Shown piece after piece: positions 2,731 through 58,386 of a stretch of DNA of 64,000 nucleotides. The notes under the pieces were generated by a model that was given only the letters and a program-made list of their open reading frames with translations, did no database searches and had not been told where the DNA came from. This stretch comes from Candidatus Saccharimonadia bacterium (lineage in GTDB: Bacteria; Patescibacteriota; Saccharimonadia; UBA4664), in assembly GCA_038244585.1 (NCBI GenBank), contig JBBRTI010000002.1, forward strand, positions 258 to 64,257. The letters are read 5' to 3'. How positions within the stretch are numbered: position 1 is the stretch's first letter; each line of letters opens with the position of its first letter. The translations under genes and the position numbers were made by a program.

Positions 2731-3579
2731 ATGACAAACGCAAAACTTCTTCAGAAGCTCATCACTACTCCTTACGTGCCGTTACTCGGTCCGGTACACC
2801 CAGATCTCATCGATGAGCAGCTGCTGGCCAATGTATTTCTTGCTGGAGATGCCGACGAGCTCCTGCCCTTCGACAAGGATCGACGCTGGTATATAAGCAA
2901 GCCGGCAATCATTCTATCAGACCACATTTACCGAAGCGTCACAGGCATGATTGTCCCGGTACTATCAAAGGGTTTGGAGCGCGTTAAGCTGTTGTGTTAC
3001 GGAGAAGCGGATCAGGACGATTTTAACAGCTGCGTTGAAGGAGTCAGGAGCTTGCATCCAATGTGCCAGATAACTATCGTCAGCTTTGCTCCCGTTGCAA
3101 CCCCCGTAGACAACGCTTCAATACTATTTCTCAAGCGTTTTTCAGAAATCGATAGTCGATCTGGCAATGCGACCGTTGAGCAAATAAGCGTAACAGAGGC
3201 CGGCAGTCTTGCAAGTTTGGCCGACGACGCCGAAAACTCTGGCTTCGGTTTTCTGGCGCGACAGTATGGCGAGAGGGAGCTCGGACCAACCTTTGTTATC
3301 CGTGACAACGGATTAGTTGTTGCTGCTGTCGGGCCAATAGATACGATGCCGGACTCAGCAGGACAATTATTATGTCTCCCACCATACGTCGGTGTAGCAA
3401 GTAATTATCGTGGCAGGGGACTCGGTAGCCTTGTTTGGCGAGCTGCCATGTCTTACGCTTCCGTCAAGGGGGCAACCTATCTATTACTTCAATCGGAGGC
3501 CGGCCAGGCTTCAGAGTATTTCTATGAGTCTCAAGGTTTAGTAGGGCTCGGAGCAGTAATTTCTAGACCAATAATATGA
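2731..3579 (+). CDS. GNAT-family N-acetyltransferase-like protein (C-terminal GNAT fold)
   Basis: ATG at 2731 lies after the terminator and an AT-rich stretch. RGRGLG matches the acetyl-CoA-binding motif A (R/Q-x-x-G-x-G/A). The ...YLLLQSEAG...YFYESQGL region is GNAT-like. The N-terminal half is unassigned. Confidence 0.55.
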   Translation: MTNAKLLQKLITTPYVPLLGPVHPDLIDEQLLANVFLAGDADELLPFDKDRRWYISKPAIILSDHIYRSVTGMIVPVLSKGLERVKLLCYGEADQDDFNSCVEGVRSLHPMCQITIVSFAPVATPVDNASILFLKRFSEIDSRSGNATVEQISVTEAGSLASLADDAENSGFGFLARQYGERELGPTFVIRDNGLVVAAVGPIDTMPDSAGQLLCLPPYVGVASNYRGRGLGSLVWRAAMSYASVKGATYLLLQSEAGQASEYFYESQGLVGLGAVISRPII

Positions 3580-3852
3580 TTTAAACCCGAAATCATAGTC
3601 GAAACCTCATCAATATTTCGGCGGTGAAGGGTATTCGGGTATCGATGTCAAAAGTTTGGTTCCAGAACATCGTCCCCTGCCATGGATTTTAGGATGAAAC
3701 GGGCTTCGATTACGGAGTCTATTTTTGATTTATGTCTATTAAATGATCGGGCATTTAATTAAATTGACAAAATGCAATATCTATAGCATAGTTTTTGACA
3801 TGTGATTTACGCTTGTATTTCCATGCACCTACAACAAGCAGGGAGTAGTGAG

Positions 3853-4272
3853 ATGCTTTTAAAATTCCTAGGCATTGGCCACCGCCAGCCGGTCGGTGCG
3901 GTTAGTGAGGCACCTCTGTCACGAGACCAAGCGCGCCTGCTGAAAGCCGCAAGGCGGGAGGCGAAGCGACTCGGTGATGAGATGTACGTACACGAAACTC
4001 TGATTCCGATTATCGACCGCCTTTTTGACTCACGCGGAGACCAGGTTGACGTCGGCCTACTGAAAATTACCCGAACCCAAACGGGCGTGACCATCCAACC
4101 CGTTATGTTTGACCCTTACGCACACTACGGAGAGGTCAAAGTGCACCCGTCAGACGTCCTACCGGCCCTCAAGGAGTACTACACGGGTCGCGGGTATACT
4201 ATAACGGCGAAGATGCACCCCGACATTCCTGAAGGTTTTTTTTCGGTTCTACGTATCGTCATCGCTCCGTAG
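3853..4272 (+). CDS. hypothetical protein (139 aa)
   Basis: ATG at 3853 is preceded by GGGAG. It lies downstream of an AT-rich promoter-like region. No recognisable motifs. Confidence 0.45.
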   Translation: MLLKFLGIGHRQPVGAVSEAPLSRDQARLLKAARREAKRLGDEMYVHETLIPIIDRLFDSRGDQVDVGLLKITRTQTGVTIQPVMFDPYAHYGEVKVHPSDVLPALKEYYTGRGYTITAKMHPDIPEGFFSVLRIVIAP

Positions 4273-4284
4273 ATCACAACAACC

Positions 4285-4345
4285 GACCCCGTACCGAAGT
4301 AGAGCCTCGCTCCTTTGGAACGGGGTTTTACTTTTAGTCAATTGG
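4285..4345 (+). terminator. hairpin followed by a T-rich tract (aaccccgt...acggggtttt)
   Basis: Inverted repeat ccccgt/acgggg then ttttacttttag, after the stop at 4272. Confidence 0.35.
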
Positions 4346-4439
4346 CCGTACGTTAGGTGTTGCACCGAACGTGCCCATAAATGCGGAGACAAGGCTAACC
4401 TGGTGAAACGGTTATGCTTACTGCTATAATCGCTACAAC

Positions 4440-5141
4440 ATGAAGAAAACTGGCACAACCCTGTACTGTTTCTCTCCCCCGGTGATGATAGCCACTTTTA
4501 TCATTGAGCTAGCGACGCTGCTCTATACGGTGATTAGATATCGCTTTACACCCCTGACTCGCGTGATTGCTGTGATTCTACTCCTGTTGGCAGTGTTTCA
4601 GCTCGCTGAATATAATGTCTGCGGCAACCTTGGGCTTTCGGCTGACGCTTGGTCAAGAATCGGCTATGTTGCCATCACTTTGCTGCCCGCCCTGTCGATT
4701 CATTTGATAATGATTGTGTCACGGCGGCATTGGCAGTGGCTCGTTTGGTTAAGCTACCTAACCGCCGCCGGCTTCGCCTTACTTTTCGGATTGAGCCAGT
4801 CGGCCTTTGCCAACCACGTCTGCTCAGGCAATTACGTCATCTTTCATTTAGTAGGCTCGGTTGGGAGAATCTACTTTGTTTATTATTATGCCTGGTTGAT
4901 TATCGGCATCTTTCTCGGCCTCTACCTCAGCGTGAATGCATCGAAAAAGATCCGTACGGCCCTGATACTGCAGGTCGTTGGCTACTTAAGCTTTCTACTA
5001 CCGACGGCGGTCGTAAATACGGTGAACCCGCGAACTATCTCCGGAATTCCGAGCATTATGTGTGGATTCGCCATAATCTATGCCCTAATCCTGGTCTTTG
5101 GCGTGGCGCCGCTAATGCTGCCGAAGCGAGCCAGACGCTAA
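4440..5141 (+). CDS. polytopic integral membrane protein (about 6-7 TM helices), function unknown
   Basis: Hydrophobic helices run throughout and the protein ends in a basic tail (PKRARR). No catalytic motifs. Confidence 0.55.
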   Translation: MKKTGTTLYCFSPPVMIATFIIELATLLYTVIRYRFTPLTRVIAVILLLLAVFQLAEYNVCGNLGLSADAWSRIGYVAITLLPALSIHLIMIVSRRHWQWLVWLSYLTAAGFALLFGLSQSAFANHVCSGNYVIFHLVGSVGRIYFVYYYAWLIIGIFLGLYLSVNASKKIRTALILQVVGYLSFLLPTAVVNTVNPRTISGIPSIMCGFAIIYALILVFGVAPLMLPKRARR

Positions 5142-42904: not shown

Positions 42905-43016
42905 CTCGCACGTCTATTTGACTTTTTCAGTAAAATGAGCGATATTTAATGGCAAAGCCCCGGGGCTTTATTAATTTTACGCGCCGGCTTTTGTCTCAAG
43001 AGGAACCACTACCAGA

Positions 43017-43205
43017 ATGAAACCGTTAATAAACTATCTGCAGGCTTCACAATCGGAACTCGCCAAGGTGTCATGGCCCAATCGGTCTCAGACCATCCGT
43101 CTGACCGGACTTGTCATTCTCTTCTCACTGGCGTTCGCGGCTGTGCTTGGTGGTATCGACTTCATTTTTGCGACGATACTCCAAAAAGTAATTTTAAAAG
43201 GGTAA
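43017..43205 (+). CDS. secE: preprotein translocase subunit SecE
   Basis: A 62-aa protein with a single C-terminal TM, located immediately upstream of nusG. Confidence 0.8.
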   Translation: MKPLINYLQASQSELAKVSWPNRSQTIRLTGLVILFSLAFAAVLGGIDFIFATILQKVILKG

Positions 43206-43208
43206 ATT

Positions 43209-43748
43209 ATGGCCGATCAGACCAAGACCAACCACTGGTACGTAATCCACACCTATTCCGGGTATGAAGACCGCGTTGCCGAGAATCTGCGCCAGCGCAT
43301 CGAGACCATGAATATGGCCGATAAGATTTTTGATGTCATCGTTCCGAAAGAGAACCAGATTGAAATCAAGAACGGCCGCCGCCGCATCGTCGAGCGCCGT
43401 ATCTTCCCGGGCTACGTCCTGGTTCAAATGGATGTCACTGAGGATTCCTGGTACGTCGTCCGTAACACCCCTAACGTCACTGGTTTCGTCGGGTCCGGTA
43501 CCACTCCGACTCCGATCAGACAAGATGAGGTTCGCCACATCCAGAAGCGCATGGGCGTTGAGGAGCCAAAGTTCAAAATCGACTTCCAGACCGGCGAGAG
43601 CATCAATATCATCGACGGACCGTTCAAAGGTTTTGACGGTATGGTCCATGAGATCGACGAGAATAAAGGCAAGATCAAGGTCCTGGTCAATATGTTCGGC
43701 CGCGAAACACCGGTCGAGCTGGACAGCCTACAAGTCAAGAAAATCTAA
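43209..43748 (+). CDS. nusG: transcription termination/antitermination factor NusG
   Basis: NGN domain (WYVIHTYSGYE) plus KOW motif (FKGFDGMV). Confidence 0.9.
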   Translation: MADQTKTNHWYVIHTYSGYEDRVAENLRQRIETMNMADKIFDVIVPKENQIEIKNGRRRIVERRIFPGYVLVQMDVTEDSWYVVRNTPNVTGFVGSGTTPTPIRQDEVRHIQKRMGVEEPKFKIDFQTGESINIIDGPFKGFDGMVHEIDENKGKIKVLVNMFGRETPVELDSLQVKKI

Positions 43749-43805
43749 CGAATTAATAACATGTGTGGGAGGCCGAAAGGCCGCTGGCACCACAAGGAGT
43801 AAATT

Positions 43806-44237
43806 ATGGCACAAGTAAAACCAGTCAAGGGTGTAATCAAGTTCCGCGTTGCCGCGGGCAAGGCTACCCCGGCACCGCCAGTGGGTTCGACCCTGGGTGC
43901 GAACGGCGTCAATATGATGGATTTCATCAACACCTTCAACGATGCTACCCGTGAGTTGGGCGACCAGCTGCTAAGCGTCAAAGTAACTATTTTCGAAGAC
44001 CGCACTTTTACCTTTACCTACAAGGGCGAAACCGGTGCCAGCCTTATCCGTAAGGCCGCCGGTATCGATAAAGGCTCCGGTGTCCCGAACAAGACCAAAG
44101 TCGGCACGCTGACTAAGGTTCAGGTTCGTGAACTTGCCGAGCTCAAGATGAAGGACATGAACGCCAACACCATTGAAGCCGCTGAGAAGATCATTGCCGG
44201 ACAGGCCCGTTCAATGGGCATCGAAGTCGCCGAGTAA
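43806..44237 (+). CDS. rplK: 50S ribosomal protein L11
   Basis: MAQVKPVKGVIKFRVAAGKATPAPPVGSTLG... is highly conserved L11. Confidence 0.92.
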   Translation: MAQVKPVKGVIKFRVAAGKATPAPPVGSTLGANGVNMMDFINTFNDATRELGDQLLSVKVTIFEDRTFTFTYKGETGASLIRKAAGIDKGSGVPNKTKVGTLTKVQVRELAELKMKDMNANTIEAAEKIIAGQARSMGIEVAE

Positions 44238-44305
44238 CTTACTCGTCCGCATCTGCATAAATAACCGTGGGAGCCGTAAGGCGCTAGCACCACAAGGAGA
44301 ATGAA

Positions 44306-45325
44306 ATGGCCCAAGCTAAGAAATCCAAAAAAGAAGTAGCCGCCGTCGATGAGACCCAGGCTGAAGTAGAAGAGGTCCGCGAGGATTCTTCGGAAGTAAC
44401 TCTGCCGGACGAGTCCGCGCGTGATGAGCGCGAGCCGGATATCGAGCCGATCGACGCTGACGACGCCGACTTAAAAACCACTAAGTCCGGAAAGCGCAGC
44501 GCCAAGGCTTTGCGTGAAGCTGCCGAGGAAGAGGCCCGCCTAGCCGCCAAGGAAGAGCGTACCGAGGCTCCTGAAGAGCCCAAGGCACCAAAGCGCCAGA
44601 CGGCCAATCCGCTGCACATGCACGGCAAGAAGTATCGCGCTGCTCTCGAGCAGGTCGATCGCACCAAGCTTTACGGCTTCGAAGAGGCCCTAGCTCTGGC
44701 CGTTAAAACTGCCACGACCAAGTTTGACAGTTCGGTTGAACTGCACATCAACTTAGGTGTCGACCCGCGCCAAGCCGACCAGATGGTTCGTGGAACCGTC
44801 GTCCTGCCACACGGCACCGGTAAGACCATCCGTATAGCCGTCTTCGCCGAAGGGGCGCAGGCTGAAGCCGCTACTGCCGCCGGCGCCGACCTCGTCGGCA
44901 CCGACAAACTGTTGGCCGACATTGAGAAGGGCAAACTGGAATTCGACATGCTAATCGCCACCCCCGACAAGATGGCCACGCTCGGACGTGTTGCTAAGGT
45001 CCTGGGACCGCGCGGCCTCATGCCGAACCCCAAGAGCGGTACCGTCACGCCGGACGTCGCCAAGGCCGTCACCGACGCCAAGCGCGGTAAGGTTGAGTTC
45101 CGTATCGACAAGCAGGCCATCATCCACCAGGCCGTCGGTAAGGTCTCGTTCAGCCAGGCCAACCTAGAGGAAAACGCCAAGACTCTTCTCTCGGCAGTCC
45201 TCAAGGCCAAGCCCAGCTCCACCAAGGGAACCTACATCAAGGCCATTGCTGTAACTACGTCCATGGGCCCTGGAATCAAGGTGGACGCTCCGGCTACCAC
45301 CGCCGCTATCTCCGGCAAGAAATAG
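44306..45325 (+). CDS. rplA: 50S ribosomal protein L1 with an approximately 100-aa acidic/Lys-rich N-terminal extension
   Basis: The L1 core begins at [12 protein letters not shown] (internal ATG about 44614). The upstream 100 codons are in-frame. A strong AAGGAG RBS sits at 44292-44297. Confidence 0.8.
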
Positions 45326-45337
45326 ACCATAGTCTAA

Positions 45338-45372
45338 AAAGACCGGCCGCTGTCAGCGGCCGGTCTTTGCGT
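45338..45372 (+). terminator. rho-independent terminator after rplA (gaccggccgc-tgtca-gcggccggtc-tttgcgt)
   Basis: Perfect 10-bp stem plus a T-tract. Confidence 0.8.
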
Positions 45373-45845
45373 ATTACCAGATATCATGATACTAATGGTA
45401 TACGATTTTTCCTGCGTTCTAAGGGGCTACCTTGGCCACACTCAAGGGCTATATCGCCTGTCAAATACAAATTCCGGCCGGCCCACCAGAATCATCGGGT
45501 ATAGATCAACAAATCATTTCCGTGAAGTTGGACTGTGGCGACCCTGTCGATCCATTCAGGGTGCACGCGTTCAGCCTCACGTTCGACAAAGCTCGGTTAA
45601 GGTCGAGCAGATCGTGGGACCGCCCAGGTGATCTCAGCCCACGACGCACAGGTATAGGATATGTGGCGGTGACGATTAGGCAGCGCCTGAGTGGCGGCAG
45701 GTATATTGTTGAGCTGCCGACAACCCATCGACCGACCCGGATTGTCGTTCCGGCCCCGTGTATCATCCGGGACGCAGCTACGCGCGATGCCCGTCTGGCT
45801 CATGCTTACGCCAACCAGCGCCTTGGCAGCTCAATCTAGCCCGCA

Positions 45846-45870
45846 GCCGGATCATCTGATCCGGCTTTTT
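45846..45870 (+). terminator. rho-independent terminator (gccggatca-tc-tgatccggc-ttttt) closing an unannotated approximately 500-bp region
   Basis: Perfect 9-bp stem plus T5. No confident CDS lies upstream. Confidence 0.7.
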
Positions 45871-45927
45871 CCTTGGCCGTGGTATCATCGGACGCAAGGT
45901 GAGTGTTCTTCGACAGATTGGAAAGTC

Positions 45928-46530
45928 ATGACCGTCAACCAAGGTATCTTCGGAGATAAATCAAATTTTGATGATCGTTTCGTTCCCGATTACGGCCGCC
46001 TGGCCGAAATGAGTATGGCACTCAAAGGCCTCGGCGCCAGTGTGGTCCTAACTTCAGGCTCGTTCGACCTGGTTCATGAGGGTCATGCATTGTACTTGGA
46101 AGCAGCCAAAAGTTTTGGCAGTCTGCTGATAGTCGGTGTTGATAGTGACATCAAGATTCGGGAGCGTAAGGGACCTGACCGACCGATTGTACCCGAAATG
46201 GAGCGGCTGAGAATGCTGACCCATTTCCGGCCAGTCGATATCGTGACGCTAAAGCCACCGGGCGATACAAAATGGGAGCTCATCAAAGTAATTAGGCCTG
46301 ACGTACTGATTGCGACCGTCGAGACCTACAGCGATGACGACATCGCCGAGCTTGAGGGCAACTATTGCGGCAGAGTTCAAGTAATGGAGCGGATGGCAAC
46401 GACCACCACTTCTGCCCGTCTTCGTGAGCTCAATATGTCGCTGGCCGAGCGTTTCACTTTGGCTGTCAACCAGGCTCTGCCAGGTATCGTGTCAAACGTA
46501 CTCGAGCCAAAGGGGCAAACAAATGTCTAA
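45928..46530 (+). CDS. HxGH-motif nucleotidyltransferase, RfaE domain II / cytidylyltransferase-like
   Basis: SGSFDLVHEGHALYLEAAK is the (T/H)xGH motif. LIVGVDSD...RERKGPDRPIVPEMERLRML matches the adenylyl/cytidylyltransferase fold. Confidence 0.6.
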   Translation: MTVNQGIFGDKSNFDDRFVPDYGRLAEMSMALKGLGASVVLTSGSFDLVHEGHALYLEAAKSFGSLLIVGVDSDIKIRERKGPDRPIVPEMERLRMLTHFRPVDIVTLKPPGDTKWELIKVIRPDVLIATVETYSDDDIAELEGNYCGRVQVMERMATTTTSARLRELNMSLAERFTLAVNQALPGIVSNVLEPKGQTNV

Positions 46531-47362
46531 ACAGCTGTTGCTTTATGCACCTGTAGTGCATCGAGGCATCGAGGAATTCGTTGGCCGTCATCGTGATGCG
46601 GTGGAGGTTGAAATCATAGGCCTCAGTTTTCAGGCAGATTACCCGTGGATGAAGAAGGACGTACGTGCCGTCGATCCCCACGCGATCCTGGTAGATTTGG
46701 CCTCACGATTCAGGACGGTCAATTTCCGCATCGTCGAAACGAGCGTGCTGACGGCTCGAATCTTTGCCGATGTCTTGGTATTGCCCGACGATGACTTGAG
46801 TCGCAGTCTCGTGGAGAACTACAGGCTTGACCTGCCCGGACGGCGGGTTATATTTGAATCGGCCTGGCTGCGGTGGGACCGGACAGCTGCCTTGGCAGCT
46901 GAAACCGTCTCGCCAGACGAGGTGGTTTCATCCGACCAGTTTGATCAAGAAACTATGCATGCGGCCATTGAACTCAGCACCCGGAGCTCCGATTGGTGGC
47001 GCCAGGTGGGGGCGATTGTCGTTCGCGGTCAAACCGTACTCTCCACGGCCAACAACCGGCATATCCCTACTGAATACACACCCTACATCGATGGTGATCC
47101 CCGTGGAATGTTTCATAGGGGGGAGCATCTGGAGCTGACAACGGCAATCCATGCGGAGGCGGCGTGTATCGCCTGGTGCGCCCGACATGGCCTGGCGACC
47201 CTGGAAGCGGCAATATATGTCACTACTTTCCCGTGCCCGGTGTGTGCTAGGTTGATTGCCGCCAGCGGAATCAGTAGCTGTTATTACCGGTCAGGCTACG
47301 CAGTGCTTGACGGAGTGAAAGTGCTCCGCGACGCTGGCGTATCCTTAATTCGAGTCCAATGA
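46523..47362 (+). CDS. dCMP/cytidine deaminase zinc-binding domain protein with an approximately 150-aa N-terminal extension
   Basis: HAEAACIAW (H-A-E) and PCPVCARLI (PCxxC) are zinc-ligand motifs. AAAGGGG RBS is present. Confidence 0.6.
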   Translation: MSKQLLLYAPVVHRGIEEFVGRHRDAVEVEIIGLSFQADYPWMKKDVRAVDPHAILVDLASRFRTVNFRIVETSVLTARIFADVLVLPDDDLSRSLVENYRLDLPGRRVIFESAWLRWDRTAALAAETVSPDEVVSSDQFDQETMHAAIELSTRSSDWWRQVGAIVVRGQTVLSTANNRHIPTEYTPYIDGDPRGMFHRGEHLELTTAIHAEAACIAWCARHGLATLEAAIYVTTFPCPVCARLIAASGISSCYYRSGYAVLDGVKVLRDAGVSLIRVQ

Positions 47363-56524: not shown

Positions 56525-58386
56525 TAGAGTTTGTAGACGTAAATCGAATTGCCAACCTTGGCAATAGGCTCCATGGCCCGCAGATTGGCATACCCCAGCG
56601 TCCCGGTAAGGCCGGAATAATAACGATCGTTCTGGAGGTAGGTTTCGGACACGGCGATGTACTGGCCGGTATAGGTTCCATAGGTCGAGTGCCACTCCTC
56701 ATAAACGCTCCGCGAGCAATCGTAGCCCGAGCCGTTGCGAATGAGTAGCCCTTTGGCATCATAGGTCCGGTCGCAGAAATAGTATTGAGGAATGGCACCT
56801 CCGAAGTAATCGACGGCGATGTGACGGATTTCCGGGTGCTCCTCGACGTAAGTTTTGAGACGGAGCAGATCCTGGCCCCAGTCCACGCTTGAGTCGCTGA
56901 AATAGCGTCCCGCACCACTGCCGCCACCAGCCAGTTCGTTGAAGTAGGACGTGAACGACGGGTACGCCAGGATCGTGCTTAAGCCGTACCACGGTAGCAG
57001 GAGGGCCAAGGCCACCGCCGTCGGAACCTGCCACCGTACGCGGCGTGATAGCCGTCTGGCAAGCTTCACCGTTCCTATGGCCACGAGGATGAAAAGCGGT
57101 ATGTAGATAGGCAGTATATGCCTTATTCCAAGATTGAGATTGCCGGCAATTGAAGCGGCGAAGTAGAAGATTGCAAAAGACCCGAGCGTCCATTCCATAC
57201 TATGGTGCCGCAGCGAGCTGGCCAGGGCTGCTACGAATGCTCGCGGTCGGGCCCGCTTGAGAGCCAGATATCCGCCCGCTAGGCTCAGGATTCCGAGTAT
57301 TAGGAAAGCGATCTGGGTTTTCATTACAAAGAGCTCAGGGAAGTAAAAGCGGTAGCTTTGGTTGCTTATTTGGCCATTGAAGTATGTGGTATTACCGCCA
57401 GCAACCCGCCCAAAGACCATGCGAATACCCAAAATGTACTGGACGAGCGGTTTGAAGGCAGGAATATCGTTTATGCTAGTCAGAGCATTAACTAGGCCTG
57501 TGTCGATCGGCTCCACCATAGTTCCGCGAATCAGGCGATCCTGCACCTGTTGGGGCATGCCGGCAGTTTGGGGTGTATAGGCCACCCAGACCATAGCGAC
57601 GCTTAGAAATGATGCCAGGATGAGACCGCCGGTCAAGACTTTGAGGCTGCTGGCATGTTCACGCTCCCGCCACCGTAGCGCCACCATACCCAAGCTAACG
57701 GCGCCCAAGAACGGGAATAACAGTACGGCCGAGAACTTAGCCAGCTGTGCTACGGCTAGTGCTAGTGCCAGAAGAAACAAATTGGAGCGGCCCGGGTGCT
57801 CGGCGTACCGGACATAGGCGACGAGAGCTAGGAAGATAAAGACGCTGGCACCCAGGTCGGTAGTCACATAATGGGAATGGGCAAGCAGGTTCGGCGACAA
57901 GGTGTAGAAAAACAGCGATAGCAGCGCCACTGCCCTGCCCCAGCGGCGATAACAGAAGCGGTACAGCACAATGCCAAAAGCGGTGGCCAATAGAAGGATG
58001 GGCAGCCGGGCCCAGAAGAGGACCTGATCGGCGTCGTTGCCCATGTGGTAGAGGAACGTCCAGCCGGTTTCCCACTGGCCGTTGACGTCGGTAGTCCAAG
58101 CGGCGTTCTCGATTGGGAATTTTAGATCCATGAACTGGAGTGGGAGTCCGGCCAGGTCCTTGATCAGGGGAGGGTGTTCCGGGTTCAGCCGGTAATCGCC
58201 GTAGTGCAGGTAGGAGTAGGCAGCCGCAACGTGAGGGACCTCGTCCACAATGGCCGAATCGCCGACCATGGCCCCTAAGCTCAAGCCGAACATCGCGGCC
58301 AGTAAGGCCCCGGCAAGCAGTATATGCCACTCTCTGGCAAAATCACGGGCGGGCATTATGATACGATGGTATAAAGACTTCGTCAT
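56521..58386 (-). CDS. GT39/PMT-like polytopic glycosyltransferase (second paralog)
   Basis: Loop 1 carries DEVPH plus a YSYLHYG-like motif. It has many TM helices and a C-terminal soluble domain. Confidence 0.65.
   Translation of the reverse strand: MTKSLYHRIIMPARDFAREWHILLAGALLAAMFGLSLGAMVGDSAIVDEVPHVAAAYSYLHYGDYRLNPEHPPLIKDLAGLPLQFMDLKFPIENAAWTTDVNGQWETGWTFLYHMGNDADQVLFWARLPILLLATAFGIVLYRFCYRRWGRAVALLSLFFYTLSPNLLAHSHYVTTDLGASVFIFLALVAYVRYAEHPGRSNLFLLALALAVAQLAKFSAVLLFPFLGAVSLGMVALRWREREHASSLKVLTGGLILASFLSVAMVWVAYTPQTAGMPQQVQDRLIRGTMVEPIDTGLVNALTSINDIPAFKPLVQYILGIRMVFGRVAGGNTTYFNGQISNQSYRFYFPELFVMKTQIAFLILGILSLAGGYLALKRARPRAFVAALASSLRHHSMEWTLGSFAIFYFAASIAGNLNLGIRHILPIYIPLFILVAIGTVKLARRLSRRVRWQVPTAVALALLLPWYGLSTILAYPSFTSYFNELAGGGSGAGRYFSDSSVDWGQDLLRLKTYVEEHPEIRHIAVDYFGGAIPQYYFCDRTYDAKGLLIRNGSGYDCSRSVYEEWHSTYGTYTGQYIAVSETYLQNDRYYSGLTGTLGYANLRAMEPIAKVGNSIYVYKLY

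Follow-up and report, generated by a model that had tools for sequence, protein, structure and literature searches.

Two short sequence elements in a 64,000-nucleotide stretch of a Candidatus Saccharimonadia bacterium genome (contig JBBRTI010000002.1; the whole stretch is called the window here), one directly upstream of rplK and the other directly upstream of rplA, are very probably operators through which ribosomal protein L1 (uL1) regulates its own synthesis by mimicry of 23S ribosomal RNA (rRNA). A sequence-only reading of the same DNA had proposed two copies of an L1-binding, rRNA-mimicking translational operator, and we find this to be the most likely explanation based on covariation in related genomes, the match of GUGGGAGGC...ACCAC to 23S rRNA and the layout of the Escherichia coli leader. 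To our knowledge, an L1 operator of this kind has not previously been described in the Saccharibacteria phylum.

Two elements resembling the L1 site of 23S rRNA

The rplK-proximal core (GTGGGAGGCCGAAAGGCCGCTGGCACCAC, 29 nucleotides (nt), 43765-43793, + strand) consists of GUGG, GA, the hairpin GGCC-GAAA-GGCC, the 3′ junction GCUGGCA and CCAC, and it matches a covariance model of the family at 38.3 bits. The rplA-proximal core (GTGGGAGCCGTAAGGCGCTAGCACCAC, 27 nt, 44267-44293, + strand) matches at 36.5 bits and reads GUGG, GA, GCC-GUAA-GGC, GCUAGCA and CCAC. The two copies differ by one extra inner-stem G-C pair (GGCC/GGCC versus GCC/GGC), in the loop (GAAA versus GUAA) and in the junction (GCUGGCA versus GCUAGCA). 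Each is followed on the + strand by a ribosome-binding region in which AA precedes the Shine-Dalgarno (SD) sequence, and in both copies the outer stem ends 2 nt before GGAG. The rplK region (43794-43808) has GGAG at 43796-43799, then six nucleotides, TAAATT, and ATG at 43806; the rplA region (44294-44308) has GGAG at 44296-44299, then AATGAA, also six nucleotides, and ATG at 44306. Global alignment of 43751-43815 with 44256-44315 (65 and 60 nt) gives 51 identities, and a repeat search returns a gap-free 34-nt pair with 79% identity (43782-43815 and 44282-44315). The leader sequences quoted in the earlier reading occur exactly in the window, and its description of a GUGG...CCAC stem around a short hairpin with a GNRA tetraloop, abutting the SD, is accurate in every detail.

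The proposed fold has a 4-bp outer stem (GUGG/CCAC), an asymmetric internal loop (5′ GA; 3′ G-Y-U-N-G-N-A) and an inner hairpin of any sequence, and would copy the helix 77/helix 78 junction of 23S rRNA, the usual docking place of L1. The E. coli 23S rRNA reads ...GGUGGGAGGCUU...GGAGCCGACCUUGAAAUACCACC..., and in it, as had been anticipated of an L1-binding site, GUGGGAGGC is found at 2121-2129 (9/9) and ACCAC at 2173-2177 (5/5), both identical to the rplK copy. In the standard secondary structure of 23S rRNA, these two segments make up the place where L1 docks, with both strands of helix 77, the GA junction and the base of helix 78. As in helices 76-78 of the rRNA, GA lies between two helices and the first inner-stem pairs are G-C, G-C and C-G, as in helix 78. 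The window elements differ in that a hairpin of 3-4 bp with a tetraloop stands in place of the full helix 78, the 12-nt 3′ junction of the rRNA (GACCUUGAAAUA) is shortened to 7 nt, and helix 76 is absent. The analogy with the system described in PMC2175363 predicts that the mRNA sites would bind L1 more weakly than rRNA, as feedback requires.

A second counterpart is the hairpin of the E. coli rplK leader (GGG-GA-GCCUC(UCA)GAGGC-GUUAUUA-CCC, followed by 5 nt to the SD), which presumably is the mapped L1 operator. It shares with the rplA-proximal element (GUGG-GA-GCC(GUAA)GGC-GCUAGCA-CCAC) the succession of outer stem, GA, inner hairpin, 7-nt 3′ junction beginning with G and ending with A, outer stem and nearby SD, and the gene context, nusG-rplK-rplA, is also the same. 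The outer stem is GGG/CCC in E. coli, whereas GUGG/CCAC in the window is identical to rRNA, and the stem lies 5 nt from the SD in E. coli but 2 nt in the window. E. coli also has a single site, before rplK, with rplA translationally coupled (3-nt gap), whereas the window has a second site and a 68-nt spacer. Repression of the L11 operon by L1 through an rRNA-like mRNA site is established (PMC10931766, PMC2175363), and the E. coli rplKA leader is the classical L1 translational operator (Baughman & Nomura 1983 and Thomas & Nomura 1987, as cited in PMC10931766).

Based on these likenesses, L1 in excess over free 23S rRNA would bind the mimic. With only 2 nt between the outer stem (3′ strand) and GGAG, L1 on the mimic should obstruct or trap the 30S subunit, and translation of the downstream gene would be switched off. 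Given the 68-nt gap and rplA's own SD, rplK and rplA are probably not translationally coupled, each having an operator of its own; with two operators, the synthesis of L11 as well as that of L1 would stay linked to rRNA supply. The rplA product is the predicted repressor. Its core (residues 105-332) is canonical, and L1 chains from the PDB, including the Thermus thermophilus L1 sequence (entries including 1zho and 2hw8), align end to end with residues 105-335, with E values down to 1.6e-84.

The 12-14 nt immediately 5′ of the outer stem (43751-43764 and 44253-44266 in the window, and the corresponding positions in relatives) are A/U-rich and strongly depleted in G across the family. Of 98 sites, 76 have TAA(C/U) in this tract, at a distance of at most 10 nt from the outer stem, a pattern that the AATAAC shared by the two window copies fits. 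The G-poor tract may serve as a single-stranded landing pad or as the -10 element of a promoter, or may consist of leftover stop codons.

Distribution and covariation in related genomes

For comparison, species-representative genomes were scanned with the L11 protein, which yielded 80 loci, almost all from the Saccharimonadia (Saccharibacteria, TM7, within the Candidate Phyla Radiation, CPR), with L11 identities from 93% down to about 51%. In each locus L11 and the L1 core were located by tblastn, and the regions 5′ of rplK and between rplK and rplA were read. Together with the window this makes 81 sources, 538 kb in all, considered on both strands. The motif counted was GUGGGA(G)-(variable hairpin)-(G)YUNGNA-CCAC-N0-5-GGAG-N3-14-AUG. 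It stands before rplA in 72 of the 81 sources, before rplK in 31 and before both genes in 27. The layout with a site before rplA only, found in 45 sources, is mostly that of Saccharimonadia but extends to a Chloroflexota locus (L046).

A covariance model built from 34 Saccharimonadia sites was run over the whole window on both strands with filters off and returned the two sites only, with the scores given above. The next-best match reached 13 bits (58045-58075, minus strand), so the window pair is far beyond chance; we rejected this third match as a chance hit that is without an inner hairpin and lies inside an open reading frame (ORF) of 621 amino acids (aa). Over the 81 sources the model gave 92 matches at E ≤ 1, all on the + strand and all located directly 5′ of rplK or in the interval between rplK and the L1 core. 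Rfam 15 returned noise only, both for this region (E ≤ 10) and for the whole window (gathering thresholds), and no Rfam family, tRNA included, reached its gathering score in the 64-kb window. The E. coli rplK leader, used as a control, was also without a match. Thus, the empty Rfam result carries no weight, as there is no usable model for this family.

Covariation was assessed in several ways, and the result is strong support for the inner helix. The sequence-only reading had named covariation in orthologous regions, together with the match to 23S rRNA, as a check on its proposal, and neither check went against it. Among the unique cores, GUGG and GA are each conserved in 93 of 96 and the closing A of the junction in 79 of 79. 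The inner hairpin is free in sequence and spans 10-24 nt in the cores that score best; across cores the first inner pair is GC in 69, CG in 13, GU in 8 and UA in 6. In an anchor-based count that needs no aligner, inner pairs 1-4 are canonical in 97.4% of cases, compared with 55.9% when partners are shuffled. A MAFFT alignment of the 34 sites has the structure paired at 96.3% versus 81.7% after shuffling, with a covariation score of 0.365 versus 0.080. In the alignment of 92 sites to the model, the inner helix is paired at 98.1% versus 78.8%, and 125 double-change cells are observed where 32.6 are expected, a value reached in none of 500 shuffles. Sliding the partner column by one position in this alignment reduces pairing to 33-38%. 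Every pair of the inner helix shows changes on both sides that preserve pairing (96-98% paired), and RNAalifold independently predicts the same two helices. The two stems comprise 4 + 3-4 bp in the window and 7-13 bp across the family, in which CCAC of the outer stem lies 0-5 nt from the SD.

Several points weigh against the operator interpretation. The outer stem GUGG/CCAC is near-invariant, so that covariation, while not contradicting the structure, gives this helix no backing; invariance of the outer helix and of the loop bases is, on the other hand, what one expects of a protein-recognition surface. In single-sequence folding the rplA core has z = -0.8 and a minimum-energy fold in another register, and the rplK core reaches z = -3.35, but in a minimum-energy fold whose register departs from the consensus by drawing on GUGU, upstream bases specific to the window. 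We preferred comparative evidence to thermodynamic folding. No 23S rRNA gene lies in the window, and the 23S comparison covers the rRNA of E. coli only. The best match of the covariance model, which was trained without any E. coli sequence, in the E. coli nusG-rplKA and 23S loci (5.5 kb) is indeed the leader hairpin (L081, 604-629), but its 14.4 bits are not significant (E = 0.13). The promoter and terminator scan, whose overall counts did not exceed those of shuffled sequence, gave no convincing promoter in either the nusG-rplK or the rplK-rplA interval. What is observed is the motif itself, with its conservation, covariation and position, the identity with rRNA and the agreement in layout with the E. 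coli leader; from these sequence features we infer L1 binding, repression and a steric mechanism for this organism.

Could these be generic hairpins near the ribosome-binding site, acting as mRNA stabilizers, RNase processing signals or attenuators, with no role for L1? The elements are indeed stable GC hairpins near ribosome-binding sites, and the link to L1 would here be drawn from sequence comparison. Such hairpins would not, however, explain the invariant single-stranded positions or the identities of 9 and 5 nt with the L1 site of 23S rRNA, nor the confinement of the motif across the 538 kb to rplK and rplA leaders or the rplK-rplA spacer, nor a layout that equals the E. coli rplK leader hairpin. 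There is also no U-run 3′ of the hairpins, so that they are not intrinsic terminators. We therefore consider generic hairpins very unlikely and retain L1 operators as our interpretation. Two other candidates were rejected. L11 recognizes a different region of rRNA from the L1 site, which argues against an L11-binding site, and a repeat of the repetitive extragenic palindromic (REP) or miniature inverted-repeat transposable element (MITE) type does not fit two copies only, both of them syntenic across genomes.

The window sites are most likely a known kind of regulator in a phylum new to it. In Fu et al. 2013 (PMC3616713), Proteobacteria and some other phyla have the L1 site before rplK, and Actinobacteria, Cyanobacteria and Chloroflexi have it before rplA; over 40% of Firmicutes have one before each gene, and the two sites of Geobacillus kaustophilus bind L1, with dissociation constants of 25-50 nM. 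T. thermophilus and Thermotoga maritima reportedly have two sites as well (Mikhaylina et al. 2021, as cited in PMC10931766). The L1 mRNA site is defined as an irregular stem-loop of 6-12 bp with an internal bulge that has a potential G-A pair and an unpaired A (PMC3616713), a definition that the window sites fit with their 5′ bulge GA and closing 3′ A, the G-A pair itself not being readable from sequence. Compared by their published description, the dual sites of Firmicutes, Thermus and Thermotoga share with those of the window the small irregular stem-loop with an internal bulge and the position of one site before each gene of a co-oriented rplK-rplA pair. They differ in the host, here a member of the Saccharimonadia (CPR), and in its L1, which has an N-terminal extension of about 105 aa. 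The rplA-only sites of Actinobacteria, Cyanobacteria and Chloroflexi (Fu et al. 2013) are like those of 45 of our 81 sources, to which the clade of the window adds a site before rplK. One locus from Acetatifactor (Firmicutes; L061) carries UUGGGAGACAAC...GUUGUCGCUAGAACCUAGGAGG in the rplK-rplA spacer before rplA. Its GGGAG core and GCUAGAA junction are like those of the Saccharimonadia, its outer stem is shorter, and it agrees with the site described before rplA in Firmicutes (Fu et al. 2013).

In all six loci without an rplA site (L004, L006, L007, L008, L015 and L017) the rplK stop codon and the rplA start codon overlap or lie at most 2 nt apart, with junctions TAATG, TAGTG, TAAcATG and TAAtcATG. 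Four of them (L004, L006, L007 and L008) have the rplK site only, which by analogy would be the E. coli solution of one operator plus translational coupling. In the other two (L015 and L017) no L1 operator was found within ±3 kb, and nusG also abuts rplK. We count the overlap loci, as a natural experiment, in favour of the operator interpretation. Three operon layouts are thus present in the Saccharimonadia, namely rplA-only, dual, and rplK-only with overlap, which is a minor new point.

Two loci carry an inserted ORF between rplK and rplA. In L074 (OZ246417.1) about 800 nt are inserted, with an ORF of 150 aa that has its own full L1 operator (3732-3761) and SD, in addition to the operator before rplA (4242-4269); here an L1 operator appears to have been copied in front of a putatively non-ribosomal gene. 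In L048 the sole L1 operator (3415-3448) precedes an ORF of 93 aa (3461-3742), and rplA (3754-4713) starts 11 nt past its stop codon, which suggests that the inserted ORF was placed under the operator and is coupled to rplA. A Pfam search of the inserted ORFs of both loci returned no family.

Origin of the two copies and the N-terminal extension of L1

On a neighbour-joining tree that combines L11 with the L1 core, the rplA site runs through the whole tree, and the rplK site turns up in at least five separate clades. The widespread rplA site is apparently ancestral, and copying, if one site does derive from the other, probably went from rplA to rplK. To compare the sites, identities were computed on their unconstrained part, the inner hairpin and the junction. 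The rplK and rplA sites of the same genome share 0.672 (27 genomes; 0.676 with 26 genomes), compared with 0.573 for sites of other genomes (permutation p ≤ 0.0002). Pairs of rplK sites share 0.632 within a clade and 0.571 between clades, and rplK and rplA sites of different clades share 0.560. This likeness within genomes favours repeated copying or gene conversion, again a minor new point. In the window, the rplK copy is nearest to the rplK site of L003 (0.90) and the rplA copy to the rplA site of L001 (0.94), while the two share 0.79 with each other. As each copy is closer to its own ortholog than to the other copy, the split between them is old.

One possible history, which we put forward tentatively, is that operator and SD form a copyable cassette. 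It would have passed from the ancestral position before rplA to rplK several times (at least five clades), or been homogenized by gene conversion, been lost upon overlap or coupling of rplK and rplA, and occasionally been copied before non-ribosomal ORFs, as in L074. If true, cassette copying would put foreign genes under the control of L1 and rRNA supply. It is rather doubtful that the operators are not copies of each other but arose or persisted independently, being alike because both must imitate one rRNA site and be recognized by one L1. Likeness within a lineage, which has inner-stem variants such as CCU/AGG and GUU/AAC, would then be due to co-evolution with its L1 and 23S rRNA. The invariant positions are indeed those shared with 23S rRNA, a short GC stem with a GNRA loop is the simplest stable hairpin and thus easily reached by convergence, and the 0.79 of the window pair ties with several rplK/rplA pairs of its clade. 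However, the inner hairpin is sequence-free across the family and is still closer within genomes than between them. Rare stems also co-occur in the same genome: L066 has the inner stem GUU/AAC at its two sites, L036 likewise has GCC/GGC, and the 30-nt cores of L034 are identical. Neither the finding that rplK sites of different clades are no closer to one another than to rplA sites nor the extra copy before the inserted ORF of L074 is what independent origin would lead one to expect.

The sequence-only reading had drawn a further conclusion from the shared first codons (MAQ), namely that the N-terminal extension of L1 stems from a duplicated rplK start region. A recent copying of this whole segment to a place before rplA, by which the extension would also have been created, would account for the 51 identities over about 60 nt, ATGGCNCAAG among them, and for rplK-site hairpins that resemble the rplA site of their own genome more than the sites of other genomes. 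Our data do not support it, and we regard it as extremely improbable. The rplA site is widespread and the rplK site patchy, so that rplA is the likelier source, and the split of the window copies is, as stated, old. From CCAC to 9 nt past the start codon, identity within genomes is 0.705 and between genomes 0.709 (p = 0.72), and the window ranks 18th of 27. The nusG start region of the window (AAAGGGTAAATTATGGC, 43197-43213) agrees with that of rplK (AAGGAGTAAATTATGGC, 43794-43810) at 15 of 17 nt (88%); as the two ribosome-binding regions are nearly identical, likeness of start regions is generic in this genome. The coding sequences of rplK and rplA are unrelated past codon 3, and MAQ is common to both starts only in the window and its closest relative (L001), the next relative (L002) having MAD and MAA. 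The extension itself is independent of the rplK site: it measures 70-125 aa in the Saccharimonadia loci examined, including 45 that have the rplA site but no rplK site, and it is a published trait of several CPR phyla (PMC9297842).

In the window the extension comprises residues 1 to about 104 (44306-44620), or about 105 aa. Here and in the same region of L001-L080 it has a variable acidic stretch, a conserved AKAGKRSAKA motif, a charged, helical-looking segment and a PKPK-rich linker, and in an alignment of PDB chains none of the solved L1 structures covers it. The start codons of extended L1 proteins are, as PMC9297842 cautions, only predicted. The conserved succession of operator, SD and AUG directly before the long L1 ORF supports the extended start codon. 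In one clade (L040, L048, L057 and L073) the extension starts with (E)I/ADIKKMKRGELN...L(G)LNPD(E/D)..ADDL..AIF, a motif with a weak, below-threshold match to Pfam Rho_N (E = 0.039), and L053 and L079 have N-terminal helices that look similar.

Operon context and significance

All genes of the cluster lie on the + strand. secE (43017-43205; Pfam SecE) is followed by nusG (43209-43748; Pfam NusG), the upstream neighbour of rplK, with its own stop codon 16 nt before the rplK operator. rplK (43806-44237) encodes L11 of 143 aa (Pfam Ribosomal_L11_N and Ribosomal_L11), and rplA (44306-45325) encodes L1 of 339 aa, with Pfam Ribosomal_L1 on residues 133-322. A simple scan for promoters and terminators gave a single promoter-like match on the + strand (42918-42946), which lies upstream of secE, and no match of either kind between the co-oriented rplK and rplA. 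secE and nusG may be on the same transcript as rplK. A GC-rich inverted repeat that we read directly 3′ of the rplA stop codon (AGACCGGCCGC-TGTCA-GCGGCCGGTCT, 45340-45369, not assigned to a strand) is perfect over 11 bp and a possible end of the transcription unit; its T run is short, and the simple terminator scan did not flag it. The ORFs at 45691-46530 and 46424-47362 look by eye unlike rplJ or rplL, and the usual rplKAJL order seems to be broken.

The interest of the finding is modest, as the regulator is of an ordinary and well-understood kind and the understanding of its mechanism is unchanged. GUGGGA-hairpin-GYUNGNA-CCAC is nevertheless a compact and highly specific motif that can be used for genome annotation, for which Rfam is without a model. 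With its SD directly before the long L1 ORF in the 72 sources that have the rplA site, the operator backs the disputed start of L1 in CPR bacteria. The rplA-only, dual and rplK-only-with-overlap layouts form a natural series on the trade-off between operators and translational coupling. Most broadly, L1 autoregulation by rRNA mimicry would be extended to the Saccharibacteria, CPR bacteria with reduced genomes that are largely uncultured and in which gene regulation is almost unexplored.

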